The notes: generated by a model from the letters alone, not told the origin. 64,000 bases of DNA from an uncultured beta proteobacterium (GCA_903867305.1 CAIPQU010000012.1:5377-69376); one strand, 5' to 3'; numbered from the stretch's first letter, positions 7,068 to 24,398 are shown. Translations and numbers: made by a program.

Positions 7068-8462
7068 TTAAAAAAAAGAATTGATCCACGCGTTGGTTTT
7101 AATGGGTGAGGAAGGATTACTGACAATTTGTTCTCGCAAAGAAACTACCGCATCTTGCAGATGAGGCGCATATTGCATGGCTAAGGTTTGTATTTTTTCT
7201 AACACAGTATGGGCTTCTAGTGGCCTCGCAGAGCTACCCAAAGCGGCCTCACAAGACTCAGAAAATTGTTGGCCATTATTTAACTGGATAGTCACTTTTG
7301 CAGGCCGATCATATGGCCAAGGACGAACATCCTTCATTTCTTGCATCACCACCTTATTTCTAATTTTAGCAATATGGGTGTTAGACATACTTTGATGTAA
7401 GAAATTTTCTGTGGCATGAGCTCCGTTAATGATGGTGGCAGCCGCTGCATGAGGAATCGAAAACTTTGCTGCAAGGGTTGTCGAAGGATTGGCATTATTA
7501 AAGTTCATCCCCATTTTGGATACTTCAATCACGATCGAAGAAATGGGTTCACCACCACGAAGGTTAGGATGTTGATCTAATATTTTTTCAATCGCCTCCA
7601 TCGAAGCATGGGCATGGTGGCAAGAGCCATAAAGCTTATGATAGCCAGCGGTAATAGTCCAATCAGAACCTAAATCCATACTAAGATGTTCAGGTTTTGA
7701 TGTTGCACCAAAACCCATTTGGTACACGTCATATGCCCCTGATGGCGTACCAAAAATATTGGCTTGTGCCATCTCACAGGCAAAATGACCTAACCAAGCC
7801 CCCGCAGCAGGCCAGGCATTTCTGATTAAGGCCCCTTGGATAGGGTGACTATAAGGACCCGGGGAAACCATAGTGCAAGCACCAGTGAGCGCATTCATAA
7901 AAAGGGTTTGATCAAAGCGCATCAAACTTGCATATCCTGCGGCAGAACATACGGCATTAAACACACCGTGCGGATGAAGTCTCGGCAATGTTTCTGGCCA
8001 AGACCTAGCAAACCTCGTGCCTATCTCATAGGCAACTACCACTGCTCTTAACATTTCTTGAATAGATAGATCATTGGCTTGCGCTGCAGCCAAGATTAGG
8101 GGTTGACTTAATGCGCCTGGATGAACTGCGGTTCTTGTATAACCATCATCTAGCTCGTTCCAAGTAATCGCCAAACCGTTTGCTAGTGCAGCGTCCATCA
8201 TCGATGTCTTTGGTCCATTCTTACGAAAAACAGTTGCTGAAGAAGATGATGATTTATGCAGTAGCTGATCGTGATACGTTTGTACCTCTGGCTCGTCAGA
8301 TGCAGATAGTGTAGCCGCAATGTTGTCACCTAAAATCAGAACGGCATTTTGCAAAACATGAGTAGGTATGTCTTCAAAACGAAGACGAGTAGCCCACTCG
8401 GATAGTTTTAATAAATGATCTGCAACACTATTTTTTAACTCGGTTTGGTTCACTGTATTCAT
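7068..8462 (-). CDS. MmgE/PrpD family protein (#1)
   Basis: ELDDG..HPG, HKLYGSCHHAH and AKFSIP motifs. Start set at ATG 8462, which overlaps the CoxL-like stop (ATGA). Confidence 0.88.
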   Translation of the reverse strand: MNTVNQTELKNSVADHLLKLSEWATRLRFEDIPTHVLQNAVLILGDNIAATLSASDEPEVQTYHDQLLHKSSSSSATVFRKNGPKTSMMDAALANGLAITWNELDDGYTRTAVHPGALSQPLILAAAQANDLSIQEMLRAVVVAYEIGTRFARSWPETLPRLHPHGVFNAVCSAAGYASLMRFDQTLFMNALTGACTMVSPGPYSHPIQGALIRNAWPAAGAWLGHFACEMAQANIFGTPSGAYDVYQMGFGATSKPEHLSMDLGSDWTITAGYHKLYGSCHHAHASMEAIEKILDQHPNLRGGEPISSIVIEVSKMGMNFNNANPSTTLAAKFSIPHAAAATIINGAHATENFLHQSMSNTHIAKIRNKVVMQEMKDVRPWPYDRPAKVTIQLNNGQQFSESCEAALGSSARPLEAHTVLEKIQTLAMQYAPHLQDAVVSLREQIVSNPSSPIKTNAWINSFF

Positions 8463-10849
8463 GATGGAGATTTTTGTAAAGCATGCCATATTTTATTGGA
8501 TGTGAAAGGCATTTCTATACCTCGTACCCCAACAGATCCTAAGGCATCCATCATCGCACTGGTGATTGCTGCAGGAGCACCTATAGTTCCTGACTCACCG
8601 CATCCTTTAACCCCCAAAGGATTATGTGTACAAGGTTGAGTTTCATCGGCCTCTGAAAGAAAGTCGGGCAATATATCAGCCCGTGGCATTGCATAATCCA
8701 TAAAAGAACCCGTCATTATCTGACCTGAGTCTGGCTCATAAACAGCACTCTCAAATAAAGCCTGCCCAATACCTTGGGCAATAGCACCGTGCACTTGTCC
8801 TTCAACAATCATCGGATTAATCACTGTACCGACATCATCTATGGCAATGTAAGAAAGCAACTTGGTGACACCAGTTTGAGGATTGATTTCAATCTCACAT
8901 GCTTGCGCACCATTGGACCAAGTCAGATTTGGTGGGTCAAAGAATGCATTTTCGTGAAGCACTGGCTCCATTCCAGGAGGTAAATTATGTGCATAGGTAG
9001 CTGCACGTGCAACTTGGTACCAGTCCAATTTTTCGTTTGATTTGTGAGATATAAAATAACCTAATCCATCATTGACTTGATGCTCAACATCGACCACATC
9101 ACAGCCAAGCAAGTGCGCAGCTAATAACTTCGCTTTATCAATAATTTTTTTACAAGCCATTGTCATCGCTCCACCTGCAATAACCATTGACCTCGATCCA
9201 AAGGTTCCTGTTCCATAAGGAACTCGACCGGTATCACCTTCTACTAATTCAATCATCGATAAAGGCAATCCAATTTTTGAAGCAATCACCTGTGGGAATG
9301 TCGTCGCATGTGCTTGACCATGACTATGCGTACCACACATTAACAAAATGCTTCCATCTGCAGATACACGAATATCTGCAGAATCAAAAAAGCCAGCTCT
9401 AGCACCAAACATCCCTGCATACTTTGAAGGTGCTACACCAGAACTTTCTAGAAAATAACAAATGCCAAACCCACGTATCATGCCATTTTCTTTTGAAATA
9501 GCACGGCGTTTTTCAAATCCAGCAAAGTCAGATGCAACTAGAGCCCGATCGAAAAGACGTTGAAAGTCACCACTGTCATAAATAGGACCTAATGGAGTTG
9601 CATAGGGCATCTCACTCGATTTAATGAAATTTTTACTGCGCAGTTCCATACGATCTATACCAGTTTGTATGGCGGCTTCTTCTATTAATCTCTCTAAAAC
9701 GAAACATGCTTCAGGTCGTCCCGCGCCACGATAGGCGTCTGTTGGAACCGTATTGGTAAACATCGCATCGACTTCTGCAAATACCGCAGGAATTTTATAA
9801 GGTCCTGACAAAACTGCGGTATAGACGGTTGTTGGTACTGCAGCCCCAACCGTAGAAATATAAGCCCCAACAGCGGCATAAGTTTTTACACGAACGCCAA
9901 GGATGTGACCTTTTTCATCTAAGGCCATTTCAGCAGAAGTCATATGATCTCGAGCTTGGTAGTCGCTAATAAATGCTTCACTTCGTGTCGAAGTCCACTT
10001 TAAGGTTAACTTCAATTTTTTACAGGCCCAGGCCAGAATAGTTTCTTCGGGATATAACTTTCCTTTAGTGCCAAAACCACCACCCACATCTGGCGCAATC
10101 ACCCGTATTGAATTTTCCGGAAGATTTAATTGCTCTGAAGTTAATTTACGGATGTGATGTGGTACTTGTGTTGCAGACCAAATCGTGAGCTCATGTCCAT
10201 CGTCTCCTAAAGATGGTGAAACTTGGGCAAGAACAGCTCTTGGTTCAATAGCAGCACAAACAATACGATGATTTTTAATTTCGACACGCACATGATGTTT
10301 AGCTTTAGCAAAAGCCGCATCCACAGGCTCTTTCGCTCCGCGGTGAAATTTCACACAAAGATTATTCGGCGCTTGTGAATGCAATTGTGGGGCAGATTCT
10401 TTTGCCGCGTCTCGAACATTCACAACAGCATCAAGGACTTCATAATCTACTATGATGAGTTCCGTAGCGTCCAATGCCTGATGGGCTGTTTTTGCAACCA
10501 CCATCGCAACAATTTCACCAACGTGGCGAACGCGATCAATCGTGATGGAATACCGAGGGGGCTCATTCATTTGAGAACCCTCTGCGCCAGGAATGATCCA
10601 CAGTGGCGTCATTTTACCAACGCCATCATTGAACATATCCTGTCCAGTCAGTACCGCATATACACCAAGCGCTTTTTGTGCGTCTGAGACATTGATGCTC
10701 TTAATAAGTGCATGTGCATGTGGCGACCGTAAGAAAGCACAGTAATATGTATTTTCAGGAAGAAGATCTGCAACAAATTGCCCCTTACCCTTTAATAATC
10801 GATTATCTTCCCGACGTAAGACCGTTTGACCAATTCCTTGAGGATGCAT
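8459..10849 (-). CDS. Molybdenum hydroxylase large subunit (xanthine dehydrogenase family, CoxL form II-like)
   Basis: 796 aa with DVGGGFGTK, AYRGAGRPE (form II signature, not AYXCSFR), HGQAHAT, GSRS and GVKGCGE. Confidence 0.92.
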   Translation of the reverse strand: MHPQGIGQTVLRREDNRLLKGKGQFVADLLPENTYYCAFLRSPHAHALIKSINVSDAQKALGVYAVLTGQDMFNDGVGKMTPLWIIPGAEGSQMNEPPRYSITIDRVRHVGEIVAMVVAKTAHQALDATELIIVDYEVLDAVVNVRDAAKESAPQLHSQAPNNLCVKFHRGAKEPVDAAFAKAKHHVRVEIKNHRIVCAAIEPRAVLAQVSPSLGDDGHELTIWSATQVPHHIRKLTSEQLNLPENSIRVIAPDVGGGFGTKGKLYPEETILAWACKKLKLTLKWTSTRSEAFISDYQARDHMTSAEMALDEKGHILGVRVKTYAAVGAYISTVGAAVPTTVYTAVLSGPYKIPAVFAEVDAMFTNTVPTDAYRGAGRPEACFVLERLIEEAAIQTGIDRMELRSKNFIKSSEMPYATPLGPIYDSGDFQRLFDRALVASDFAGFEKRRAISKENGMIRGFGICYFLESSGVAPSKYAGMFGARAGFFDSADIRVSADGSILLMCGTHSHGQAHATTFPQVIASKIGLPLSMIELVEGDTGRVPYGTGTFGSRSMVIAGGAMTMACKKIIDKAKLLAAHLLGCDVVDVEHQVNDGLGYFISHKSNEKLDWYQVARAATYAHNLPPGMEPVLHENAFFDPPNLTWSNGAQACEIEINPQTGVTKLLSYIAIDDVGTVINPMIVEGQVHGAIAQGIGQALFESAVYEPDSGQIMTGSFMDYAMPRADILPDFLSEADETQPCTHNPLGVKGCGESGTIGAPAAITSAMMDALGSVGVRGIEMPFTSNKIWHALQKSPS

Positions 10850-10979: not shown

Positions 10980-11948
10980 ATGAATCTCATGAAAAATTGT
11001 TTGATCTCGTTAATGATTTTGTTATTTGGTACATTCTCAGCGTTGAGCATTGCCCAGCAAAAAATGAAAATGGGATTGTTTATCGCATCTTCTGCACTTC
11101 CCTACTTTATCGCTAAAGAAAGGGGTTATTTTGCAGCAGAGGGTTTAGATGTTGAAGGAGTTCCCCTAGCAACTCAACCACTAGTCGTTCAGGGTATAGT
11201 CACAGGTGATTTAGATGCGGGATCGAATTTATTATCTCTTGAGGGTGCAAATATTAATGCTATTCGACCCGATACGTTGAAATATATTTCATTAAATTGC
11301 CAAAACGTCAAATATCAACTTGAGGCTTATGTGGTTCCTGTAAACAGCCCTATTAAGACTATAGCTGAATTGAAGGGTAAAAGAATCATGTCTGCGCCTG
11401 GACCTGGAAATCTTTTCGTAGCTAAAGGGGTTCTTAAAGCTGTTGGCTTAGATGAAAAAGATTATCAAATGCAAGAACAACAAATGAGCGTTCACATTGG
11501 TGCGTTGCAGTCTGGCCAATATGATGCGGTTTACACCCTTGAACCGATCGTCAGCATGATGGTTTCTCAAGGTATTGGCCGTAAGCTTGAGAGCGGTGTG
11601 ATTGCAAAATATATGCTCGGAAAACCTGATGCTTGCGCAGTCCTTGGTGGCGGAGTTCTCAGTTCTAAATTTATTAAAGAGTATCCACAAGCTGCGGAAA
11701 GATTTGCAAGAGCGTGGGCAAAAGCGTTGAACGATGGCAACAATGATCCTAAAGCACGTGATTTACTTGTCAAATACATGAACACGTCAGCAAGTATTGC
11801 TCAGACGGTTCCTTTATCACACTACAATATGATTAAAGACTTAAAACCTCAGGATCTTGCAGATTTTCAGAATTTAATTGATCAAGCAACTGCATATGGA
11901 CTCGTCAAAGAGAAAATAGATGCTAAATCCTTCATCAAAGTATATTAA
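10980..11948 (+). CDS. NitT/TauT (NMT1/SsuA-like) ABC transporter substrate-binding protein
   Basis: Signal peptide, ALPYFIAKERGYFAAEGLDVE and IKTIAELKGKRI motifs; first gene of an ABC trio. Confidence 0.88.
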   Translation: MNLMKNCLISLMILLFGTFSALSIAQQKMKMGLFIASSALPYFIAKERGYFAAEGLDVEGVPLATQPLVVQGIVTGDLDAGSNLLSLEGANINAIRPDTLKYISLNCQNVKYQLEAYVVPVNSPIKTIAELKGKRIMSAPGPGNLFVAKGVLKAVGLDEKDYQMQEQQMSVHIGALQSGQYDAVYTLEPIVSMMVSQGIGRKLESGVIAKYMLGKPDACAVLGGGVLSSKFIKEYPQAAERFARAWAKALNDGNNDPKARDLLVKYMNTSASIAQTVPLSHYNMIKDLKPQDLADFQNLIDQATAYGLVKEKIDAKSFIKVY

Positions 11949-11953
11949 ATTTT

Positions 11954-12718
11954 ATGACATTGAAAAAATCACTAGAGCCTCTAGAACCATTAACTGGGGC
12001 TTTAGTTTTTATCTTTATTTGGTGGCTTTGCACTTCGCTAAAGTTGGTTGATCCCATCTTATTACCATCCCCGCAAGCATCAGCTAAAGCCATGTGGACT
12101 GGCCTTACTACTGGCACTTTAATGCACGACATGATCATCACGATTCGGCGCACCATTTATGCTTTTTTAATTGCTGTTGTGATTTGTGTGCCTCTTGGAC
12201 TTGTTTTAGGTAGTTCAGCTCGAATTTATCGATCTTGTGAATTTGTGATTGATTTTTTTCGCTCAACACCAGCTTCCGCCCTATTCCCCCTATTTTTAGT
12301 TATTTTAGGCGTAGGTGAAAATACTAAAGTCGCTGTTGCTGCTTTCGGTGCGGGATTATTAATTCTTTTTAATACTGCCTATGGTGTGATGAATGCGAGA
12401 AAAGTCCGACAAGCTGCTGCTAGAGTCATGGGAGCGTCAAGTTTGAAAATACTTGGTGGAGTAACACTACTTGAATCACTCCCACAAACTTTCGTTGGTA
12501 TGCGCTCTGGAATATCCTTTTCTTTAGTGATTGTCATCGTTGCTGAGATGTTCATTGGCTCCACAGATGGTCTTGGCCAAAGGGTCATCAATGCACAAAT
12601 GATTTTTAATATGCCGGAAATGTATGCGACGATTTTTAGCGCTGGAGCATTAGGCTATGGATTAAATCTGCTCTTTATTCTTGCAGAAAGACACTTCGTT
12701 CATTGGGGTGGTAAATAA
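11954..12718 (+). CDS. NitT/TauT ABC transporter permease
   Basis: Hydrophobic; LLPSP, EAA-loop-like QAAARVMGAS and AEMF..GLG. Confidence 0.92.
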   Translation: MTLKKSLEPLEPLTGALVFIFIWWLCTSLKLVDPILLPSPQASAKAMWTGLTTGTLMHDMIITIRRTIYAFLIAVVICVPLGLVLGSSARIYRSCEFVIDFFRSTPASALFPLFLVILGVGENTKVAVAAFGAGLLILFNTAYGVMNARKVRQAAARVMGASSLKILGGVTLLESLPQTFVGMRSGISFSLVIVIVAEMFIGSTDGLGQRVINAQMIFNMPEMYATIFSAGALGYGLNLLFILAERHFVHWGGK

Positions 12719-12748
12719 TCGTGCGTTTCTTAAAACAATAAAGACATC

Positions 12749-13510
12749 ATGCCTGCCCATATCCAAATCCGTGGTTTAAATAAATCTTTTGCTGGACAAA
12801 CGCTGTATTCCAATTTCGACCTAGACCTTCCTCACGGCAAAATTACTTCTATCTTTGGTCCAAATGGTTGTGGAAAATCCACACTGATTAACATGGTTTC
12901 AGGTTTGACTCCCATGGATAGCGGTCAAGTTCTTTTTGATGGAAAAACACTAGCTCAAACTGTGATTGGCTATGTCTTTCAAAATTACCGCGACGCTCTT
13001 TTCCCTTGGAAAAAAGCCATCGATAATATTAAATATCCACTTCAAATAGCGAAGAAGCCTTCTGGTGAGATTGAAGCAAGAACACAAGAACTGATTCAAT
13101 CTTTTGATGTTCGATTTGATTTAAATCGTTATCCCTACGAATTATCTGGTGGTCAGCAACAGTTGATTTCGATTATGAGAGCCCTAGCACCTCATCCAGA
13201 AGTACTCTTTTTAGATGAGCCTTTTTCTGCGCTGGATTATGAAATGACACTATTTATGCGAGATAAACTTCAGGCGATTTTTGAAGCAACAAAAACCACC
13301 ATGATTCTTGTCTCTCATGATCTCGATGAGGCTGTTTATTTATCTGATCACATTCTCATGCTGACACGGCGTCCTACGAGAATTGCACGCGAAATAGAAT
13401 TTACAGCACCAAGACCTCGTCAACCCATTACGCTGACTTCTGAATTGTTCAATCAAGTTAAAGGGCAATGCCTAGAAATCTTCCAAAAAGAGATTAAAGT
13501 AATAGATTAG
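12749..13510 (+). CDS. ABC transporter ATP-binding protein
   Basis: Walker A GPNGCGKS, signature LSGGQQQ, Walker B LFLDEPF and H-loop VSHD. Confidence 0.96.
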   Translation: MPAHIQIRGLNKSFAGQTLYSNFDLDLPHGKITSIFGPNGCGKSTLINMVSGLTPMDSGQVLFDGKTLAQTVIGYVFQNYRDALFPWKKAIDNIKYPLQIAKKPSGEIEARTQELIQSFDVRFDLNRYPYELSGGQQQLISIMRALAPHPEVLFLDEPFSALDYEMTLFMRDKLQAIFEATKTTMILVSHDLDEAVYLSDHILMLTRRPTRIAREIEFTAPRPRQPITLTSELFNQVKGQCLEIFQKEIKVID

Positions 13511-13543
13511 AATCATGAAACATTATAAAAAAGGAGATATCCT

Positions 13544-14020
13544 ATGAGCATCCAAGTCTCGATGACCATCAATGGCCAAGCCATTTCACATGAGGTCGAA
13601 GAGCGCACGCTATTAGTGAACTTCATTCGTGATCATTGCCGCCTGACAGGGACTCATGTGGGTTGTGATACTGCTCAATGTGGTGCCTGCACGATTCATC
13701 TTAACGGTCGCGCCATTAAAAGTTGTAGCATTTTGGCGATGCAGGCACAGGGTGCTGCAATTACGACTATTGAAGGTGTATCAATCGATGACCAATTGCA
13801 TCCAATGCAAGAAGCATTTAAAACCCATCACGGTTTGCAATGTGGTTATTGCACACCCGGAATGATTATGAGCGCGATTGATCTGGTAAACAATTTCCCT
13901 AACCCAAGTAAAGAACTGATTCGTGAACAACTCGATGGGAATTTGTGTAGATGTACTGGTTATCACAATATTGTTGTAGCGATTCAAGAAGCCGCAAAAG
14001 TAATGAGTCCTTCTAACTAA
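13544..14020 (+). CDS. Molybdenum hydroxylase small [2Fe-2S] subunit (CoxS-like)
   Basis: [19 protein letters not shown] and CRCTGY motifs. Confidence 0.95.
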
Positions 14021-14039
14021 GATTATTTCGGAGCATTTT

Positions 14040-14834
14040 ATGTATCCTTTTTCGTTTCATCATACAAAATCGATTCCTGAGTCGGTATCGTTAAAAAAAG
14101 AACTTTCAGAGGCCAAATATATTGCTGGTGGTCAAAGTTTAGTTGGGGTTCTGAAACTCAGGCTTGATAAACCTTCGGAACTAATCAACCTAGGATCAAT
14201 ACGTGAACTTTCAGGTATTTGTATCGAAGGTAAAACTCTGACGATTGGAGCAATGACTAGACATGCTGAAGTTGCTGCTTCATCTGATGTGAAATCTTGT
14301 ATTCCTGGAGTAGCTCAATTAGCAGGTCTGATAGCAGATCGAATGGTTCGTAATATGGGTACGATTGGTGGATCTGTTGCAAATAATGATCCTTCGGCTG
14401 ATTATCCCGCTGCTGTATTAGGATTAAATGCCACCATTATTACCAATCAACGCGAAATACAAGCGGATGATTTCTTTATTGGTATGTTTGAAACAGCTCT
14501 TGAACCAAGTGAATTAATTCAATCAATTCGCTTTACTGCGCCAATTAAATCAGCCTACGCAAAATTCAAACACCCTGCATCAAGGTATGCCGTAGTCGGA
14601 GTTTTTGTTGCCCAATTTCCAAATGAAGTTCGAGTTGCTGTTACCGGTGCAGGAGCTTCCGTTTTCCGTCATACAGAAATGGAAAAAGCTCTTTCTAAAG
14701 ATTTTTCTACAAGTGCTATTGAACCCATTCAGATTTCTGCTCAAGGTCTTAACTCTGACTTTTTTGCGGATTCACAATACAGAGCCCATTTAATGAAATC
14801 AATGGCAATACAAGCCGTGAATAACGCAAAATAA
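14040..14834 (+). CDS. Molybdenum hydroxylase FAD subunit (CoxM-like)
   Basis: [21 protein letters not shown] and KHPASRYA motifs. Confidence 0.94.
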
Positions 14835-14851
14835 CATTACTAGGAATTAAT

Positions 14852-15946
14852 ATGGCAATTGACGTCGTTAAAGTTGAAATTAAAAGTGTCTCAGATGCAT
14901 CGGGTCTGATACATCATATTGAATCTGGCAGGTTCAAGGCTGATGAAGTTATTGCTGTTATTGGAAAAACCGAAGGTAATGGCGGCGTGAATGATTTCAC
15001 AAGAATCTTATCCGATCAAGCTTTTCGGGAGGTTCTGTTAAAACATGGTACTAGAACAGCGGCCCAGATTCGTGAAATCCCCATGGTTTGGTCAGGTGGT
15101 TGTGATGGTGTCATCACTCCCCATGCAACCATCTTTGCTCAAGTTCAAGATTCAACTACTTCTCAAGAAAGTAGATTAGTCATTGGGACTGCCCTCAGCC
15201 CACGCATTTATCCAGAAGATATTGGACGACTTTCAATGGTAGAAAAAGTCAAGCAAGGTGTTTTACTTGCGATGAAACAGGCAGGGATTGATGACCCTAA
15301 AGATGTTCATTATGTACAAACGAAAACACCACTATTGACTATCGAAACTGTCCTCGACGCTAAATCTCGCGGTAAAACATTAGCTTGTGAAGTACATGAC
15401 TCGATGGGAGTCTCTAATGGTACTACTGCACTAGGGATTGCCGTTGCTCTTGGCGAAATTGCTATGCCTACTGAAGATGATATATGTGAGAATCTGGATT
15501 TATATTCTTCCGTATCTTCTTGCTCTTCAGGAGTTGAATTAGATTTTGCACAAATTGTTCTTCTTGGAAATAAATCGGGTGCTGGCGGAAACTTTAAGAT
15601 AGGTCATAGTGTGATGCGAGATGCGATTGACATCGACGGTATCTATGATGCTATTCGCTCAGCCGGTTTAGATCTTCCTGAACGTCCTAGATCAACAGAC
15701 TTAAAAGGAAAACTCGTCAATTGCTTCATCAAGTGTGAAGCGGACCATACTGGCAAACTTCGTGGTCGCCGTCAAATCATGTTAGATGACTCTGATGTAC
15801 ATCATCACCGACATTCTAAAGCAGCTGTTGGAGGCGTTGCTGCTGCTGCGATTGGTGATCCCGCTGTATTTGTCTCTGTGGATGCGATGCATCAAGGTCC
15901 ACGCGGTGGTGGCCCTGTGATTGCTATTGTCGATTTAGGAAATTAA
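14852..15946 (+). CDS. Ring-opening cyclic amide hydrolase (AtzD/barbiturase family), barbiturase-type
   Basis: [63 protein letters not shown] and [11 protein letters not shown] motifs. Confidence 0.9.
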
Positions 15947-15971
15947 CAGCTTATTTCATTAACAGCTGATT

Positions 15972-16451
15972 TTATGAATAGGAATTAGGGTCAAAAAAAC
16001 TTGTTCCTGCAATATAACGTTTTCCATCAGACATATCTGGAAGCGGCCCTTTTTCAATTTTTCCTTCAAAGGTTAATTCGAGTTGCACGCCGCTGGGATC
16101 ATAGACAAATAATTGCCATATGGTCGTGTTAGGAACTAAGAACTCTCGATATGGCAATCCCATCTCGATAAATTTTTCTCTAAATTCATGATACCCAGAA
16201 CATGAAAAAGATATATGATCAATTGCAGCAGTACCTAATGGAGTCTTACCATCCGCCCCCAAAGCAGGACCTCCAGCATAACAATGAAGTATCGCTTGCC
16301 CCCCAGGGATCGGAGCTGCAAGCCAAGCACCAGGAAAGCCAAAATCAGGGCGATAAATATCTATCAAACCTAAAACCTTGGTATAAAACTCTTTCGTTGC
16401 CTCTAAATTATTTGTTTTTACAGCGATATGAAATAAACCATTCGTTATCAT
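15972..16451 (-). CDS. VOC (glyoxalase/bleomycin-resistance-like) protein
   Basis: FHIAVKT, LHCY, IDHISF and DPSGVQLEL paired beta-alpha-beta-beta-beta metal-ligand pattern. Confidence 0.85.
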   Translation of the reverse strand: MITNGLFHIAVKTNNLEATKEFYTKVLGLIDIYRPDFGFPGAWLAAPIPGGQAILHCYAGGPALGADGKTPLGTAAIDHISFSCSGYHEFREKFIEMGLPYREFLVPNTTIWQLFVYDPSGVQLELTFEGKIEKGPLPDMSDGKRYIAGTSFFDPNSYS

Positions 16452-16464
16452 GAACTACCCCTAT

Positions 16465-16848
16465 TTAAACTTTATCGATCAAACTAACATGGGCTGAAAC
16501 AATTCGCCAACCATCCGCAGTTCTTACCCAGGTTTGCGATTGACGTCCAATTTTTCCAGGAACAGTTTCTCTTTCAAATAAGGTATTAGCAGTTGCTAGA
16601 TCATTTCCAAAAGTTGTAATAACAGTTTTACTGAGACTTCTTAATAATCCTTTTGATGGTCTAGCCGCTCTAAAAGCAGCAATTTCGCCAAAGCCATAAA
16701 GATTTTCATTCATTCCATAACGGATCACTAGGGGGTTATTCCAAAAGGAATCATCTAAGATATTAATCTTATTGTGAATCAAAGCGTCCTCATATTGATC
16801 AAATAACGCTTGAACTTCAGCTACTACATTAGGGATGTTAATTTGCAT
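16465..16848 (-). CDS. AtzH-like / HpxZ (DUF3225, NTF2-like) protein
   Basis: 127 aa with FDQYEDAL, IRYGMNENLYGFGEIAAFR and GRQSQTWVR..GWRIVSAHVS. Confidence 0.9.
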   Translation of the reverse strand: MQINIPNVVAEVQALFDQYEDALIHNKINILDDSFWNNPLVIRYGMNENLYGFGEIAAFRAARPSKGLLRSLSKTVITTFGNDLATANTLFERETVPGKIGRQSQTWVRTADGWRIVSAHVSLIDKV

Positions 16849-17055
16849 TGATAGATCTCAAATTCATAAGTGGTAAAGTTTCATTCTAGTATAAGCCAAG
16901 CAGAAACATGATAGCCTGACTAAGAATAATCCTGAATTGATTTTGTCGGCAAAAGATACTAAGCTTACGATCATCAATTTAATGATTGAGTAGTTTTTAT
17001 CAAGGCTGGTAGACTATTCACAAATTATATCTTTTAAAAAGAAACGAGACGATCT

Positions 17056-18090
17056 ATGAAACAAATAATGAAAAGCCTAATTCTCTTATTCGGTTTTTTT
17101 ATCTTGGGTACTGCTACTGCCCAAACAAAACCACTTGATCTTAATATTTCTCAAGTTGGATCATTCCATATTGGAGGAAGATTTGTTGAAGTTTCTGGCA
17201 AACCAACGAAAGAGGTAGTCTTTAGTCCGGGAAGTGCTCCAGCAAAAATAGATCCTAATGGTAAATATCTTGTGGAGCAAATGTATGTGCAGTACTTTAT
17301 TCCCAAAGATGTTAAACATCAATTGCCAATATTGCTTTGGCATGGCGGTGGCCTATCAGGGGTGACTTATGAAACCACTCCTGATGGAAGGCCCGGATGG
17401 CAGCAATATTTTATCAGTCAAGGTTGGAAGACTTATGTCTCTGATGCGGTTGAAAGAGGACGCTCGGGTTGGGCGTCGCCTGATATTTGGCCTTCTGATC
17501 CTCAATTTTTAACGATTGATAACCCATGGCATCGATTCCGAATTGGTGCTAATGCTTGGAATGATGACCCTGTCAAAAGAGCACAATACCCCGGTAGCCA
17601 ATTCCCTCCAGAAGGCTATTTAAACTTTATGCGTCAAGTCGTTCCCCGTTGGACTACCACCGATGAGGCAACGATTGCAGCCTATACAGAATTAGTGGAT
17701 AAGGTATGTCCATGTATCGTTCTCGTTCATAGTCAGGGTGGGCAATTTGGTCAAAAAGTAGCTCAAGCACGACCAGATAAAGTCAAAGCGCTGATTTTAG
17801 TTGAACCTGCGGGATTTGGTGATCCTAATAAGGCGAGCGCACTGAAGAATATTCCCATTCTCACCATCTATGGAGACTATATTGATATCGATTCACGTTG
17901 GCCAAAGATTCGGCAAACACAGATGGAGTTGAATCAAAAATATATCGCCGCAGGGGCTAGTGTCGAGGTGATCAACCTGCCTGAAATAGGCATCAAGGGC
18001 AACTCCCACATGATGATGATGGACCGTAATAACCTTCAAATTGCAGGGATCATAGAAGACTGGCTAAAGAAAAAAGGTTTTAGAGATTAG
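17056..18090 (+). CDS. Exported alpha/beta hydrolase (esterase-like)
   Basis: Signal peptide, HGGG oxyanion motif, nucleophile elbow VHSQGG and C-terminal GNSHMMM His. Confidence 0.85.
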   Translation: MKQIMKSLILLFGFFILGTATAQTKPLDLNISQVGSFHIGGRFVEVSGKPTKEVVFSPGSAPAKIDPNGKYLVEQMYVQYFIPKDVKHQLPILLWHGGGLSGVTYETTPDGRPGWQQYFISQGWKTYVSDAVERGRSGWASPDIWPSDPQFLTIDNPWHRFRIGANAWNDDPVKRAQYPGSQFPPEGYLNFMRQVVPRWTTTDEATIAAYTELVDKVCPCIVLVHSQGGQFGQKVAQARPDKVKALILVEPAGFGDPNKASALKNIPILTIYGDYIDIDSRWPKIRQTQMELNQKYIAAGASVEVINLPEIGIKGNSHMMMMDRNNLQIAGIIEDWLKKKGFRD

Positions 18091-18119: not shown

Positions 18120-18995
18120 TTATTTAAATAATCCGTCGAGATACTTTTCATAATCGTAATAATTAATACTTTCGTATAACTCATTTCTAGTTTGCATTTG
18201 AGCAATTAAATCTTTCTGCGTTCCTTTAGAACGGATCGTTTGATAGACATTCTCGGCAGCTTTATTCATTGCTCTAAAAGCAGATAATGGATACAGCGCA
18301 ATACTAACGCCAACCGATCTTAGCTCTTCAATCGTAAACATTGGAGTAGAACCAAACTCAGTAATATTAGCCAAAATGGGTACTTTTGTTTTTTTTACAA
18401 ATTGTTGATATTGATTGAGTTCTGTAATCGCTTCTGGAAAAAGCATATCAGCACCAGCTTCAACATAAGCCAAAGATCGATCAATTGCAGCATTTAATCC
18501 CTCAGCGGCTAATGAGTCCGTTCTAGCCATAATGACAAAATCGTCATTTGACTTTGCATCCACAGCAGCCTTGATGCGGTCGACCATTTCTTCGCAACTC
18601 ACAATTTGCTTATTTGGACGATGTCCACAACGCTTAGCTCCAACCTGATCTTCAATATGAATAGCAGCTACTCCAGCTTTTTCTAGCGAACGTACTGTTC
18701 TTGCAACATTAAATGCAGAAGAACCAAATCCAGTATCCACATCGACAAGTAATGGCAAAGGACATACATCGGTAATTCTTCTCGCATCAATGAGTACATC
18801 CTCTAAGTTGGAAATACCCAGGTCTGGCATACCTAAAGACCCTGCAGATACACCTCCTCCAGAGAGATAGATCGCTTTGTAACCAGCGCGTTGCGCCAAT
18901 AAGGCATGATTTGCATTAATGGCACCAATCACTTGTAATGGGGACTCTGCCTGTATAGCTTGACGAAAAGCGCTTCCTGAACTGATACGACTCAT
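18120..18995 (-). CDS. prpB: 2-methylisocitrate lyase
   Basis: [33 protein letters not shown] and MARTD motifs. Confidence 0.92.
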
Positions 18996-19022
18996 AGACT
19001 GACCTTTATAAAAAATGAAGCT

Positions 19023-19985
19023 TTAATCTTCTTTCATATTCGATTTTTTAATAATGGGCTCAAGTCGTCCTTTTTCTTCTGTCAAAAATTTCACAAAATC
19101 TGCTCTAGAACCAGGTGATGGCTCAATACCTTGTGGAACTAAACGATTCGTGACGGCTTCTGTTTTCAATCCCGCATTAATAGCTTGATTCATTTTTTCT
19201 AAAACATCATCTGGCGTACCTTTAGGTGCGTACAAACCAGCCCAGTGACCAATAAAAACGTCTGAAAAACCTAACTCTTTCGTGGTTGGAACATTCGGTA
19301 ATGCAGATATTCTTTTATTCCAAGTCGATGCAATCGCTTTTAATTTTCCACCCTGAATCTGTGGTATCACCACGGGACTTGCCTCTGAGGTTGCATCCAC
19401 TTGACTTGAGATCACCGCCAGCATACCCTCTGAGCCACTCTTATAAGGAATTATTTCATATTTACCCCCAGTACTCAATTTCAGCATTTCAGCCACGAAA
19501 TGAGGCGTGCTTCCAGTTCCTGCGGTAGAAAAATTAATCCCTTTAGGCTCTTTGGATACGGCAATTAAATCTTTTAATTGATTAATCTTTGAATTAGCGG
19601 CAACTACAATAATTGATGGACTAACCGCTAAGAAACTTACAGGAATTAAATCACCCTCTTTATAAGGCATGGTTGACTTGATGAGAGCATTGGTTAAAGT
19701 ACCACTAGCACCAACAAAAAAGGTATAACCATCATTCGCACTTTTCGCAACATAATCGGCACCTAAAACAGATCCCGCCCCAGGCTTATTTTCAACAATA
19801 ATGGTTTGTCCAAGTTGTTTTGACGCAGACTCTGCAGCAACTCTAGCAACTAAATCATTTGCCCCACCAGGTCCAAAGCCAACAACAAATTTAATTGTTC
19901 GGTTAGGCCAAGGATCTGCAGCATACGAGAGCTGAAAAAGTGTCATACCTAACATTAGGCTAATTAAAGATATTCGTAATTTCAT
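19023..19985 (-). CDS. Bug/TctC substrate-binding protein
   Basis: WPNRTIKFVVGFGPGG, ENKPGAG and IPYKSG motifs with signal peptide. Confidence 0.93.
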   Translation of the reverse strand: MKLRISLISLMLGMTLFQLSYAADPWPNRTIKFVVGFGPGGANDLVARVAAESASKQLGQTIIVENKPGAGSVLGADYVAKSANDGYTFFVGASGTLTNALIKSTMPYKEGDLIPVSFLAVSPSIIVVAANSKINQLKDLIAVSKEPKGINFSTAGTGSTPHFVAEMLKLSTGGKYEIIPYKSGSEGMLAVISSQVDATSEASPVVIPQIQGGKLKAIASTWNKRISALPNVPTTKELGFSDVFIGHWAGLYAPKGTPDDVLEKMNQAINAGLKTEAVTNRLVPQGIEPSPGSRADFVKFLTEEKGRLEPIIKKSNMKED

Positions 19986-20079
19986 TTTTACACTCTCAAA
20001 GGGCTATGCATAACAAATTGTAAACGTGATTCCACTTTTAATAAGGGCTTACTTATTTCCTTCTTAATACAAACTTTAA

Positions 20080-22401
20080 TCATCTTTTTAATGGCCCAAA
20101 GTGAGGCGGAGAAACCCTTCTTTTTGAGGATGCTTCATACGCTGAGGCTACCCGTATTAATCGGTCTTCCATTCCGGGCTCTACACGGAATACCAAGGAG
20201 AATGGCAAGCCGGCTCCTTCAATCTTCGTGGGCTCTTGACTCGCTTTAGCAACGTATTTTTGTCGATCCTCTGATAACTCAAACCTAGCATCGTAAGCCG
20301 TGTCAACAAATCCAGCTGGAACCAATATCTCGGTGAGACCTGCATTCGGGCCATACAACAACTCGTTCCGAAGATCATTGATTTCTCCTGGCTCATCGGG
20401 CCATCCAATTTTTGCTGGAGGAAGTGGCGTATGCAGACGAACTAAAACATCCAACTTATTCTCCAGTATGACCATCATATCCACTCGTCGTAATAACTCT
20501 CTGAGCATAATCCGTTCATCAATCCCCTGCCGACCACCTAAAGGATTTCTAGGATCCGTAGTCTCTTCCCAGTTTTTAAATGCGGAGCGTTGATCATCTC
20601 CCCAAAACTTTGATCGCTGATTTAATGTAGGCCAATCAATCATCGATTCATTAAAACCAAGGGCTTTCCAATCTTGAGCTCGACGACTCAAATATTGCTT
20701 GATATGAAATCGAAATGAATTCGCTAAAATTTGATGCTGAATAGTCGCAATGGTTAAATTCTTTGGAGGTTCAATATTTAAATCAGCGAGCTCCACAAAA
20801 TAATCAATGGATGTCATTTTTCCTGTACCAAATACTTTTCCTGGAGCAAATTCTGTTGGCTGTATTTGTGCAGCAAATTCAGGAAATAATGGCTGACCAG
20901 TATCATTTAAGCGAAATAATATATCTGGCATAAATACAGGAAGCAGTCTTGCTAATGCCTTTGTAAAATCAATATCCATCTGCTCCATCGAGCTATCTTT
21001 TTTCCAAAGATAATGCGAAGACTCGACTAAAGTTGCACCTAAGTGCTCTCCAAGAACTGTTTTAATCTCCTGAGTTGCCTTCGTAATGATGGGCTCAACT
21101 GATTGAATACCGGGATTGACCATTGATTCACGAATCACACCGATGCGCGTACCTTTGAGAAACCCTGCCGTATTACTTTGAATGATATGGTCTTGGTATC
21201 GTGTCTGTAATACGGATGAACGTGGAACGGTGGTATACGGATCTCGAGGATCGTAATAACCCTTTTCTTCGTCCTTGAGTGCATCTAGGATACGAGCACA
21301 GTCATCTAGACTCCGTCCTAGAATACCCGTACGATCACAATAAATATCTGCACCAATTGCTCCTCCATCAAATCCTAACATTGCCTTATGAGGCAATATC
21401 AATGCTAAAGAATTATGGTTAGCGGGCCCACGTGTCGACATCCGTGTCTCTTCACCAAGACTTGCCATTACCAAATTAGCACTGACGGATACACCCGATC
21501 CTGAACTTGAGCCTAGTGAAGCAGAACGAGTTGTATCATAAGGATTCGATGGATTACCACCCCAGGTAGAGCGTTGATAACCTAGAACAGAAGGCAATAT
21601 TTGCTGAGGATAATTTTTGCCGCCTGGATCACCTGCACGGCCATTGTATTCAGTCATAACAGCCTTCGCTAAAATAATCGCACCTTTTTTACGAAGTTGA
21701 TCAACCAAAATATGGTCTCTCGCTGGAAAATCAATATCATAAGCAGCATCTGCGCCACCCGTTGATCTCATATCCTTCGTATCAAAAGCATCTTTAAAGG
21801 AAAAAGTAACGCCATAAAGGGGCATTAAATCTAGATCAGGTTGATTACCATATTGCTGATCTAATGCTGCTGCCTGTTCGAGAGCATCGGGATAATGCCG
21901 AAACATTTCACACATGGGAGGTGCTCCAATAGGCAAAGGACCTTTTGAGGGATGTAAGTCGTAATCACCTCGGCAGGTAACCGATCGCTCACCACGCAGG
22001 TTAATGGTTGATAAAGCATTTAATTGTCCAGCATTGGGTTTACCCACGATCATGCCAAACTGCTGTTTCACAGAGGGATCAGAGGCTGTCGCTTCCATTC
22101 GGCCAAACTCAAGTTCAGGTCCCATATAAGCATCTAAATTAGGAAATAAATCACTTGCTTTAAGCGTTTGCTGATCAAACTGAATCGCTTGCCCTCCCCG
22201 AACAACTCCATGCTCAGCTGGAAGATTACTCCCATCTCTGGTTACTAATAAGCTCGAAGGACCATTAAAGTGACGAATTCGCTCTAAATATTGTTGAACA
22301 ATCTCAACACATGTCGTTCGGCCCTCTTGAATAGCAAGATGCAATTGAGCAATAGTAGATTCTTCTACCTGAAAATGTTGATTTGACTGACTTTGTGACA
22401 A
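20080..22401 (-). CDS. Large amidase-signature family protein with atypical motif
   Basis: FSFKDAFD (Lys), NPYDTTRSASLGSSSGSG and EETRMSTRGPA in place of TDTGGSIRxPA; 773 aa. Confidence 0.8.
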   Translation of the reverse strand: MSQSQSNQHFQVEESTIAQLHLAIQEGRTTCVEIVQQYLERIRHFNGPSSLLVTRDGSNLPAEHGVVRGGQAIQFDQQTLKASDLFPNLDAYMGPELEFGRMEATASDPSVKQQFGMIVGKPNAGQLNALSTINLRGERSVTCRGDYDLHPSKGPLPIGAPPMCEMFRHYPDALEQAAALDQQYGNQPDLDLMPLYGVTFSFKDAFDTKDMRSTGGADAAYDIDFPARDHILVDQLRKKGAIILAKAVMTEYNGRAGDPGGKNYPQQILPSVLGYQRSTWGGNPSNPYDTTRSASLGSSSGSGVSVSANLVMASLGEETRMSTRGPANHNSLALILPHKAMLGFDGGAIGADIYCDRTGILGRSLDDCARILDALKDEEKGYYDPRDPYTTVPRSSVLQTRYQDHIIQSNTAGFLKGTRIGVIRESMVNPGIQSVEPIITKATQEIKTVLGEHLGATLVESSHYLWKKDSSMEQMDIDFTKALARLLPVFMPDILFRLNDTGQPLFPEFAAQIQPTEFAPGKVFGTGKMTSIDYFVELADLNIEPPKNLTIATIQHQILANSFRFHIKQYLSRRAQDWKALGFNESMIDWPTLNQRSKFWGDDQRSAFKNWEETTDPRNPLGGRQGIDERIMLRELLRRVDMMVILENKLDVLVRLHTPLPPAKIGWPDEPGEINDLRNELLYGPNAGLTEILVPAGFVDTAYDARFELSEDRQKYVAKASQEPTKIEGAGLPFSLVFRVEPGMEDRLIRVASAYEASSKRRVSPPHFGPLKR

Positions 22402-22719
22402 GATTTCACTCCCTTAGAATAGATTGCTTCCTCAATAAATAAGCCTAATTCATTGTTTTATTATTTAAATAATGACAGCAAAACCTATTGAAGATGTTCG
22501 TCTATCAGTATAAAACTAATCTTTTTATTTTTTAAAAACATCGATCAATCTCATTGGAGGATTACCTAGAATGAATTCGGAGTTATTTGTCATCAAATAA
22601 CAGATCAATATATAGGCTCGAACGTGATTTTATGCTACGCAATTCCTAAACTTGATCAGAAGACACTAATGACTTGACAGATATCATGAATAAAGAAATT
22701 TTATTCGAATAAGCATATC

Positions 22720-22742
22720 AGGGACCTCTTTAAGAGATCCCT
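22720..22742 (-). terminator. Stem-loop downstream of the MFS gene (possible terminator)
   Basis: Minus strand AGGGATCTCT-TAA-AGAGGTCCCT, a 10-bp stem with one G-U pair, 12 nt after the stop. The U-tract is weak. Confidence 0.4.
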
Positions 22743-22754
22743 AAATGAAAAGAA

Positions 22755-24398
22755 TTAACTAAACAACTTTAATGCACTGAGAACTGTTCGATAGACTCCC
22801 CATGCTAGTGGCAATCCAACAAAACTCCAAGATAAAATAACTCGTAAAGAGCTTGAGTTTGAATTCATGGATGGGTTTTGACTACCTATTTCAATTGATA
22901 AGGCTTTTTCATGTGCAAGGCGTTTCTCTTCAGCAAGCTCTGCGTCAGTCATAAACCAATGATCAGCAACTGGTTTAATGAACCAATTACAGATCAGACC
23001 AATTAACAACATACCAACCAAAATATACATTGTTTGGTTATATACCTGACTTTTCGGTAATCCAAGGCTCAATTGATAATCACGCATATAGTTCACAACG
23101 ACAGGCCCCAATATACCTGCAGTGGCCCATGCAGTAAGCAATCGGCCATGAATCGCACCAACCATTTGTGTTCCAAATAAATCGGCCAAATATGCCGGCA
23201 CTGTTGCAAAACCACCGCCATACATACTTAAGATAATACAAAAAGCAAGAACAAAAAAGACTAAATTACCAGCGTTTGAACTTGATGGAACACTAAAGTA
23301 TAAGAGGCCGCCAAGAATAAAGAAAATCGTATACGTGAGCTTACGACCAAATTTATCAGACAAACTTGCCCAGAAAAAACGTCCCGCAATATTAAATAAA
23401 CTCAGTAATGCAGTAAACCCTGCGGCAACAGCAGCGATCGAAGTTAACTGAGCTTTATCTAATTCATTAAACTTCAGATCTACACCAATCAAGCTTCCAG
23501 CAAAGACCTCTTGCAGCATCGGTGATGCCATACCAATCACACCAATTCCGGCTGATACATTCATCATTAAAACCATCCAGACTAACCAAAATTGCGGAAT
23601 TCCCCAGATCTTTTTGACATGAACACTTTTTTTGGTAATCATAGAATTGCTTTGTGCAACAGGTGAAGGATTCCATCCTTCTGGCTTCCAATCACTACTT
23701 GGAATCCGGTAACTCATTGCTCCAACTAACATATAGATGATGTAAATCACCCCCATTACTAAAAAGGTTTGAGCAACACCAACACTCGTCTCAGATGAGA
23801 AGTTTTTCATGAGTAATGCAGCCAATGGCGAACCAATCATCGCTCCACCACCAAAACCCATAATAGCCATGCCAGTTGCCATACCCCGACGATCAGGGAA
23901 CCATTTAATCAAAGTAGAAACGGGAGAAATATAACCCAACCCAAGCCCAACTCCACCAATGACCCCAGACCCGACAATCATTAACCAAAATTGGTGGGTA
24001 TAAACACCCAATGCAGAAATGAGCATTCCTCCACCCCAACAAATGGCAGCAACTACACCCGCTTTTCTTGGGCCTTCTCTTTCTAACCAACCACCCCAAA
24101 TAGCGGCTGAAACACCTAAAAACACGAAGAACAAGGTATACATCCAACCTAAAGTAGATATTTTCCAGTCACAACTAGTGGTAAATAACTCTTGAAAGAA
24201 TCCAACATCAGGGCCGCATTTAATTGCTTCTGTAAGGCCTTGAGAGACGCCTAAGGATTTAGACAGCGGAATCCAAAATACTGAAAATCCATAAGCCATA
24301 CCAATGCAAAGATGAATAGCTAAGGCTGCTGGCGGAACTAACCAACGATTAAAGCCCTTGCCTGCAATGATGTGTTCTTTATTTAAAAAATCAAACAT
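22755..24398 (-). CDS. MFS transporter, OFA (oxalate:formate antiporter)-like
   Basis: More than 12 TM segments; YAFSVF-like YGFSVF, WFPDRRGMATG and YGGGFATVPAYLADLFG motifs. Confidence 0.9.
   Translation of the reverse strand: MFDFLNKEHIIAGKGFNRWLVPPAALAIHLCIGMAYGFSVFWIPLSKSLGVSQGLTEAIKCGPDVGFFQELFTTSCDWKISTLGWMYTLFFVFLGVSAAIWGGWLEREGPRKAGVVAAICWGGGMLISALGVYTHQFWLMIVGSGVIGGVGLGLGYISPVSTLIKWFPDRRGMATGMAIMGFGGGAMIGSPLAALLMKNFSSETSVGVAQTFLVMGVIYIIYMLVGAMSYRIPSSDWKPEGWNPSPVAQSNSMITKKSVHVKKIWGIPQFWLVWMVLMMNVSAGIGVIGMASPMLQEVFAGSLIGVDLKFNELDKAQLTSIAAVAAGFTALLSLFNIAGRFFWASLSDKFGRKLTYTIFFILGGLLYFSVPSSSNAGNLVFFVLAFCIILSMYGGGFATVPAYLADLFGTQMVGAIHGRLLTAWATAGILGPVVVNYMRDYQLSLGLPKSQVYNQTMYILVGMLLIGLICNWFIKPVADHWFMTDAELAEEKRLAHEKALSIEIGSQNPSMNSNSSSLRVILSWSFVGLPLAWGVYRTVLSALKLFS

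Follow-up and report, generated by a model that had tools for sequence, protein, structure and literature searches.

An AtzH-like gene and a VOC gene form a recurrent pair and a candidate finishing module for ureide and pyrimidine-ring catabolism at a barbiturase-type locus of a Polynucleobacter relative

When a bacterium opens a barbiturate-type ring, which enzymes deal with the ring-opened product? The question is raised by a stretch of DNA of 64,000 nucleotides (nt) from an uncultured beta proteobacterium, a Polynucleobacter relative with a genome of 3.1 Mb (GCA_903867305.1 CAIPQU010000012.1:5377-69376; hereafter the window, meaning the whole stretch, with coordinates counted from its first letter). 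The window encodes a barbiturase-type ring-opening hydrolase, and a pair of genes converges on it, one for a small protein of the AtzH/TrtB/HpxZ family and one for a glyoxalase-like protein of the VOC (vicinal oxygen chelate) superfamily. The biochemistry of the oxidative pyrimidine pathway has been known since the 1950s: uracil or thymine is converted to barbiturate, barbiturate to ureidomalonate, and this to urea and malonate. To our knowledge the pathway is genetically defined for barbiturase only. An earlier note on this DNA had put the pair forward as candidates for the missing ureide-cleaving step, which would be a new role for the AtzH family. We find that the pair is a real module that recurs in islands for the catabolism of ureides and pyrimidine rings, that it is here part of a Mo-hydroxylase/ATP-binding cassette (ABC) importer/barbiturase unit, and that it is unlikely to be the missing urea-releasing ureidomalonase. 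That the AtzH-like and VOC proteins make up a conserved, mobile two-enzyme finishing module of importer-linked clusters for the catabolism of pyrimidine-like or ureide rings is an explanation that we hold about as readily as we doubt it. The features at issue are the following.

15972-16451, minus strand: VOC (glyoxalase I-like) metalloprotein of 159 amino acids (aa), the pair's second gene (PF00903 and metal ligands)
16452-16464, minus strand: spacer of 13 nt between the AtzH-like and VOC genes (read from the sequence)
16465-16848, minus strand: AtzH/TrtB/HpxZ-family protein of 127 aa with an NTF2-like fold, the pair's first gene (PF11533, NF033625, 6BJT)
14852-15946, plus strand: barbiturase-type ring-opening amidohydrolase of the AtzD family, the last gene of the plus-strand operon (PF09663, 5HWE)

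The open reading frame (ORF) coordinates and strands agree exactly with the earlier description of a two-gene unit with a 13-nt gap, convergent on the hydrolase gene; 25 nt separate the stop codons of the hydrolase and VOC genes. On the minus strand the spacer holds a purine-rich AGGGG Shine-Dalgarno-like motif 6-7 nt ahead of the VOC ATG, and as far as can be read from the sequence, the spacer and the motif are consistent with co-transcription of the pair. A promoter and terminator scan of 15700-17200 gave no signal above the shuffled expectation.

To which family the first protein belongs is clear. The 127-aa protein matches PF11533 (AtzH-like/DUF3225; 183.7 bits over residues 1-125, cut-off 27) and the NCBIfam model NF033625 (HpxZ; 185.5 bits, cut-off 135), and aligns with the AtzH crystal structure 6BJT at 138 bits. 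This alignment is gap-free, and the window numbering is that of PMC6219798 minus 3. The arginine-rich AtzH pocket is lined by Tyr22, Arg46, Arg63, Arg66, Arg73, Phe94, Arg96, Gln106 and Gln108, of which Tyr22 and Arg46 are catalytic (PMC6219798). All nine residues are kept in the window protein (Y19, R43, R60, R63, R70, F91, R93, Q103 and Q105), and all nine are identical in 51 of 56 AtzH family members, regardless of the neighbouring gene. A pocket that is intact and near-invariant points to the chemistry common to the family, in which a small amide or ureide with a carboxyl group loses CO2, and does not reveal a particular substrate. Judged by its sequence, the gene is a new member of a known decarboxylase family in a variant context. 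The pocket residues were also considered as a divider of VOC-paired from amidase-paired AtzH-like proteins and were ruled out, being invariant. "HpxZ" was likewise rejected as a specific name for the 127-aa protein: NF033625 also passes, at 179.9 bits, a probable TrtB-type protein of an atzF/atzD cluster, so the label is non-specific for subtypes. The AtzH-like domain also occurs in longer, fused forms among database proteins (P0241, P0243, P0244, P0248, P0242, P0249 and P0252). Its fusion partners are CoxG (PF06240, a Mo-hydroxylase accessory domain; P0241, P0243 and P0244), OHCU decarboxylase (PF09349), amidase (PF01425) and FmdA/AmdA (PF03069); no AtzH-VOC fusion was found among these forms.

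The second protein scores 32 bits against PF00903 (cut-off 20.6). Four of its residues, H8, H56, H79 and E125, align with the four metal-ligand positions of E. coli glyoxalase I and are invariant in 42 VOC homologues of 39-87% identity, and we conclude that the protein is a divalent-metal enzyme. An AlphaFold (AF2) model of good confidence (pLDDT 88.2, pTM 0.83) was compared with known folds by Foldseek and matched small single-domain VOC proteins with a probability of 1.00, none of them with an informative function. We know of no characterised relative of this protein, and in the literature searched no paper names both glyoxalase and cyanuric acid hydrolase. Of the pair, it is the VOC member that is undescribed and worth an experiment. 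A paralogue of 31% identity is encoded on another contig of the source genome (C156:59900-68100), where it and a PuuE-like gene adjoin a further set of FAD, FeS and large-subunit genes that follows a LIV-type ABC importer, as a paralogous echo of the window layout; at least 12 paralogous Mo-hydroxylase large-subunit genes are present in this genome.

We asked whether the two genes are found together elsewhere. Two samples were used, 301 Burkholderiales genomes of 142 genera (with VOC orthologues taken at E <= 1e-30 and the AtzD family as PF09663) and eighty metagenomic VOC loci. An AtzH-like gene is present in 44 of the 301 genomes, and at 20 of the 29 best Burkholderiales loci it stands directly behind an amidase gene, which is the canonical atzE-atzH order. 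Adjacency of AtzH-like and VOC genes was observed in at least six different gene arrangements. The window type recurs in metagenomic loci (L128-131), and in a sister lineage (L132-136) the AtzH-VOC pair of the same Mo-hydroxylase/ABC cluster as in the window converges on the FAD gene, with no barbiturase gene. At L137, AtzH, VOC and NMT1-ABC genes are flanked by a 2-oxoglutarate oxygenase gene, a PuuE-like gene and a true AtzE (646 bits), the last with a small upstream ORF that is likely AtzG. At L151, L154 and L157, NMT1-ABC genes and a ureidoglycolate-lyase-like gene are followed by AtzH and VOC; at L153 the AtzH/VOC pair is convergent; and in G280 an operon consists of LysR, Bmp-type ABC importer, VOC and AtzH-like genes, in the reverse order with the AtzH-like gene directly behind VOC. 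At one locus, L155, both genes lie in one cluster without being adjacent. In a maximum-likelihood tree of 48 AtzH-like proteins, VOC adjacency is polyphyletic, with at least five state changes across well-supported branches, and the window's clade is sister to an amidase-adjacent clade. Adjacency repeated in different orders is good evidence for functional coupling of the AtzH-like and VOC proteins.

The co-occurrence of the VOC gene with the AtzD family was then counted by genome and by genus. Twelve of the 301 Burkholderiales genomes have a VOC orthologue; an AtzD-family gene is carried by 11 of these, as against 8 of the other 289. Six of the seven VOC-bearing genera hold the AtzD family, for which 10 of the 142 genera are positive (hypergeometric P ~1e-7, to be taken as an upper bound on significance, since related genomes are non-independent and such statistics overstate co-occurrence). 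All 19 AtzD-positive Burkholderiales genomes have an AtzH-like gene.

Some related loci differ from the window in what they have kept. In G304, a genome of the same genus that is 99% complete, only the first 26 codons of the VOC gene are left (L208:6338-6415, on G304:C125), downstream of an 87%-identical AtzH-like gene and followed by ~1 kb without an ORF; no AtzD-family gene was found in this genome, which suggests that the module decays where ring opening has been lost. In G320, also of the same genus (L209; G320:C80:131000-150900), the first gene of an operon is AtzH-like (79% identity), and the operon also encodes a LIV-type ABC importer and another Mo hydroxylase, whose large subunit is 32% identical to that of the window; neither a VOC nor an AtzD-family gene lies nearby. 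On a metagenome contig of the sister lineage (L132:3123-4400), at a locus without a barbiturase gene, a 425-aa protein of three RidA/YjgF (PF01042) repeats is encoded inside a LIV-type ABC operon, directly upstream of AtzH-VOC. The "Toblerone" fold of AtzD and barbiturase is thought to derive from three concatenated YjgF units (PMC3758960), and by analogy the 425-aa protein could be a fused trimer comparable to that fold.

What the pair belongs to in the window was approached through the neighbouring genes, which are as follows.

7068-8489, minus strand: MmgE/PrpD-family gene, divergent from the importer operon (PF03972 and PF19305)
8459-10849, minus strand: Mo-hydroxylase large subunit, divergent from the importer operon (NF041018 at 595.8 bits, under the cut-off of 790)
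10980-13510, plus strand: NMT1/THI5-type ABC importer, comprising binding protein, permease and ATPase (PF09084, PF00528, PF00005)
13544-14020, plus strand: Mo-hydroxylase [2Fe-2S] subunit (PF01799)
14040-14834, plus strand: Mo-hydroxylase FAD subunit (PF00941)
17056-18090, plus strand: alpha/beta-hydrolase-like protein with a hydrophobic N-terminus, divergent from the pair (weak Pfam alpha/beta-hydrolase matches)

The order is thus MmgE/PrpD and the Mo large subunit on the minus strand, the run of importer, FeS, FAD and barbiturase genes on the plus strand (10980-15946), VOC and AtzH-like genes on the minus strand, and the alpha/beta-hydrolase-like gene on the plus strand. The barbiturase-type gene follows 18 nt behind the FAD gene and is in one operon with it. 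An orthologous cluster with the same arrangement, of MmgE/PrpD, Mo large subunit, ABC, FeS, FAD and a convergent VOC gene, is found in three genomes of another family (G242, G157 and G112; f61). Their proteins are identical to those of the window at 58-59% for MmgE/PrpD, 72% for the Mo-hydroxylase large subunit, 76-79%, 80-82% and 79-81% for the ABC binding protein, permease and ATPase, 68-76% for the [2Fe-2S] subunit, 57-59% for the FAD subunit and 68-72% for the convergent VOC protein. Other families, too, have VOC as a constant part of the orthologous Mo-hydroxylase/ABC/MmgE-PrpD cluster. At the far end of the cluster these three genomes have an AtzD-family gene other than that of the window (36-38% identity to it), together with a family-III CoA-transferase and alpha/beta hydrolases, and in G242 a flavin monooxygenase; their AtzH-like gene lies elsewhere, behind an amidase. 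At a further locus, L061, the orthologous Mo large-subunit gene has a barbiturase-type gene as its direct neighbour, on the other side. From the layouts of the window, of L061 and of the three genomes it follows that the Mo-hydroxylase/ABC/VOC core has been joined to AtzD-family genes in three independent ways. The nearest relatives of the window's barbiturase-type gene are alphaproteobacterial-type (74-81% identity), and the orthologues of the other cluster genes are in Burkholderiales. Most simply read, the barbiturase-type gene was inserted, in the window lineage, between the FAD gene and an older convergent VOC(-AtzH) unit.

Whether the alpha/beta-hydrolase-like gene at 17056-18090 is a member of the unit is uncertain. 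It is kept in L003 and L004, and a 59%-identical homologue adjoins the LysR-HyuAB-barbiturase cluster of L081, an alphaproteobacterial metagenome-assembled genome; other alpha/beta hydrolases are embedded within the G242 and G157 clusters.

The partners of barbiturase-type genes in general were examined in a survey of 80 loci, with one genome per species, whose homologues are 74-91% identical and come mostly from Alpha- and Betaproteobacteria; the window proteins and the commonest neighbours were mapped onto them. The window's hydrolase matches PF09663 at 459 bits; it scores 494.9 bits with the Rhodococcus barbiturase 5HWE and no more than 300.9 bits with any of the cyanuric acid hydrolase structures. 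Neighbours at the 80 loci were ABC importer components (49-59 loci), HyuB (44), an amidase-signature amidase of 474 aa (44), HyuA (41), a LysR regulator (31), Mo-hydroxylase subunits (15-20), uracil phosphoribosyltransferase (9) and DUF1688 (8); VOC was found at 3 and an AtzH-like gene at 3. A conserved unit in alpha- and betaproteobacterial loci (L006-L081) comprises LysR, HyuA and HyuB (beside barbiturase, an ATP-dependent hydantoinase-like pair), barbiturase, NMT1-ABC and the amidase. Other frequent neighbours of this unit are uracil phosphoribosyltransferase, DUF1688 (the yeast URC4 family) and, following an NmrA-like gene, a second Mo hydroxylase.

Could the pair, then, be the ureidomalonase? 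According to Soong et al. (2001), as cited in PMC3758960, this enzyme follows barbiturase when Rhodococcus erythropolis degrades pyrimidines by the oxidative pathway; it converts ureidomalonate to urea and malonate (EC 3.5.1.95). Neither gene of the pair belongs to the amidase-signature family, which is the candidate that context suggests. Judged by that context, the amidase present at 44 of the 80 loci is the likelier ureidomalonase than a pair present at 3, and it fits the ureide-cleaving step better than the genes that had been put forward for it. The amidase is not of AtzE type (224 bits against a cut-off of 426). The source genome has no orthologue of it (best match 33% identity); at least six amidase-signature amidases are encoded on its other contigs, and a urea-releasing ureidomalonase acting in trans is therefore possible. 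The earlier note was right that hpxW, hpxX, hpxY, atzG and atzE neighbours are missing: none was found nearby, and no protein of the whole source genome reaches the cut-off of the AtzE family TIGR02715 (best 251 bits against 425.75). Urease is present in the source genome (971 bits), so urea would be usable by the organism, and no urea carboxylase there reaches the cut-off.

The 773-aa amidase-signature protein encoded at 20080-22401 was considered as a local AtzE substitute and is left unassigned, as it reaches only 53 bits against the AtzE model and its gene shares a separate operon with prpB and a Bug-type gene. The minus-strand run in question (18120-24398) encodes an MFS transporter with a small-subunit tail, the 773-aa protein, a Bug-type binding protein and prpB (525 bits), with no further prp genes adjoining the last; the 773-aa protein has an 82%-identical paralogue on contig C135 of the source genome.

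From these observations we infer substrates, an order of steps and a part for the VOC reaction. The module in the window would be the old convergent end of a Mo-hydroxylase/NMT1-ABC/MmgE-PrpD cluster into which the barbiturase-type gene was inserted. An imported pyrimidine would be hydroxylated by the Mo enzyme to a barbiturate-type ring, and the barbiturase-type enzyme would open this ring to an acyl-ureide of the ureidomalonate type. The AtzH-like protein may then act as a decarboxylase, in the manner of AtzH, TrtB and HpxZ, on a carboxylated amide or ureide formed from that acyl-ureide, and the VOC protein, with its His-His-His-Glu divalent-metal site, may make or consume the same unstable intermediate. 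The amide cleavage that releases urea or ammonia would not be carried out by the pair; it would probably fall to an amidase-signature amidase encoded elsewhere in the genome.

Several points weigh against this explanation, besides the non-independence of related genomes mentioned above. Within the 80-locus survey the pair is restricted to the window's own lineage, the three loci (L002-L004) being relatives of ~90% identity with synteny over the whole region. In five barbiturase-bearing genomes of other lineages no VOC orthologue was found (best 42-43% identity); three of the five lack an AtzH-like gene, and in one of the two that have it, it lies ~1.2 Mb from the barbiturase gene. The sister-lineage loci L132-136 have retained the pair together with the Mo cluster, and no AtzD-family gene lies less than 10 kb away. 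The source genome has no AtzE-type amidase to make a dicarboxylated N-carboxy substrate, and ureidomalonate itself bears a C-carboxyl, not an N-carboxyl. The fold search with the VOC model returned generic glyoxalase-like matches only, so the VOC reaction is a guess. The co-occurrence with barbiturase-type genes across genomes that the earlier note looked to is thus confined to one lineage, and conserved linkage is largely lacking in the barbiturase clade. Of its suggestion that the pair may process the ring-opened product, what survives is a recurrent module tied to the AtzD family and to ureide catabolism; a linkage to barbiturase beyond the window's own lineage does not.

The pair might instead serve the Mo-hydroxylase/ABC branch and bypass the barbiturase product, acting for instance on a Mo-carboxylated or oxidised intermediate, with the barbiturase gene a late and functionally separate insertion. 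Such a role would suit the sister lineage, in which AtzH-VOC converges on the FAD gene and no barbiturase gene is present, as well as the G320 operon, where an AtzH-like gene stands with another Mo hydroxylase and no VOC, the three AtzH-like-CoxG fusions, and the VOC paralogue that abuts the second Mo-hydroxylase cluster on contig C156. It sits poorly with the three independent joinings of the orthologous cluster to AtzD-family genes, with the near restriction of VOC orthologues to AtzD-positive genomes, and with the tight placement of the barbiturase gene behind the FAD gene in a single operon, and we regard it as possible, though doubtful. A separate idea is that the pair replaces ureidomalonase, VOC and AtzH-like proteins together converting ureidomalonate to small products without an amidase, possibly with VOC using its metal to assist a deamidation or decarboxylation, after which the AtzH-like protein would remove CO2. 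We consider this distinctly unlikely. The G280 operon holds only LysR, a Bmp-type ABC importer, VOC and the AtzH-like gene, so that for some substrate two enzymes may be enough; the VOC metal could be chelated by acyl-urea and malonyl groups; and the source genome lacks both AtzE and an orthologue of the barbiturase-linked amidase. However, we know of no amide hydrolase in the VOC superfamily. L137 has VOC and AtzH-like genes alongside a true AtzE and a likely AtzG, and an amidase also adjoins VOC in G157, G015, G073 and L156, which argues that VOC is not an amidase substitute. The amidase-signature amidases elsewhere in the source genome, and the barbiturase-type genomes of other lineages that manage without the pair, count against it as well.

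Put more broadly, VOC may be an unrecognised cyclic-ureide (AtzD-family) enzyme that, with an AtzH-family decarboxylase, forms an amidase-independent route from acyl-ureide to simple products. We think this unlikely; if true, it would give the VOC superfamily a reaction of a new type and would supply the last part, so far missing, of the oxidative pyrimidine pathway of Gram-negative bacteria. That the two genes are chance neighbours, an orphan HpxZ-type oxalurate gene next to a generic detoxifying glyoxalase-like gene with no functional tie, is highly improbable and already largely refuted by the comparative data. The NCBIfam name of the 127-aa protein, the low Pfam score of VOC and the absence of the pair from 77 of the 80 barbiturase-type loci would all fit it; but the name is non-specific, hpxWXY genes are missing, the adjacency recurs, the genome-level co-occurrence is strong, and in G304, without an AtzD-family gene, the VOC gene beside the AtzH-like gene has been cut to a remnant.

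For the two-enzyme finishing module that we set out at the start, the consequences depend on the VOC protein. The locus and its relatives offer a concrete, testable gene set for the whole oxidative route in abundant freshwater bacteria (Polynucleobacter), together with a VOC-family metalloenzyme whose orthologues, in our sample, occur almost only where the genome also encodes an AtzD-family ring-opening hydrolase. If VOC has a defined step, it would add one more enzyme to the cyanuric acid, barbiturate and ureide pathways, which matter for the recycling of nucleobase nitrogen and for the biodegradation of s-triazines and biuret; if it has none, the pair would be an ordinary helper decarboxylase with an accessory gene.

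How does the pair compare with known systems? On the VOC side, the protein has the paired beta-alpha-beta-beta-beta fold of the small single-domain VOC metalloenzymes (glyoxalase I 1F9Z, FosA/FosX and the methylmalonyl-CoA epimerase type). It differs from them in its ligands, His-His-His-Glu where glyoxalase I has His-Glu-His-Glu, in an identity of at most 28% to any solved structure, in a C-terminal extension of 30 residues and in its context of ureide and pyrimidine catabolism. On the AtzH side, AtzH of Pseudomonas sp. ADP (6BJT/6BJU/6D63) decarboxylates 1,3-dicarboxyurea, the product of AtzEG (PMC6219798). It shares with the window protein the family PF11533, the gap-free alignment and the nine pocket residues, whereas it is encoded directly behind atzG-atzE in the atzDGEHF pathway, which starts from cyanuric acid hydrolase, and the window gene has no amidase upstream, a VOC partner and a barbiturase-type neighbour. 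In the Klebsiella hpxWXYZ oxalurate branch, as described in PMC12625717, the oxalurate amidohydrolase is HpxY, a relative of AtzE, and the decarboxylating amidohydrolase is HpxZ; the window protein passes the HpxZ model, but hpxW, hpxX and hpxY are absent from the window.

The closest parallel in logic is TrtB of Herbaspirillum, a carboxybiuret decarboxylase according to Aukema et al. (2020), as cited in PMC7948467. Its substrate is formed directly by cyanuric acid hydrolase, and TrtB co-occurs with AtzD, without AtzEG (PMC7948467). TrtB is aligned with AtzH and HpxZ in one tree of 126 positions, according to the legend of Fig. S11 in PMC12625717. Here too a homologous small decarboxylase is co-located with an AtzD-family hydrolase and no AtzEG: the end of the AtzH-like gene lies 519 nt from the stop of the barbiturase-type gene, and no AtzE is encoded in the genome. 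The substrates would differ, the barbiturase product carrying a C-carboxyl and not the N-carboxyl of the TrtB substrate. Our sample also contains a locus in G280 (L125; G280:C9:8000-27900) with allophanate hydrolase (atzF), an AtzH-family gene whose start overlaps the atzF stop, a Bmp-type binding protein, formamidase, a GntR regulator and cyanuric acid hydrolase, probably a TrtB-type route for biuret or a triuret-like compound; the VOC/AtzH-like operon of the same genome is separate from it. The probable TrtB-type protein of this locus has Leu at the position of AtzH Arg66, where the window protein, like AtzH, keeps Arg. Since an AtzH-family enzyme acting right after AtzD-family ring opening is already known in TrtB, the role of the window's AtzH-like protein would be a variant of a known one, and the earlier claim of a new role for the family was overstated. 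What differs from the known design is the barbiturase setting and the VOC partner.

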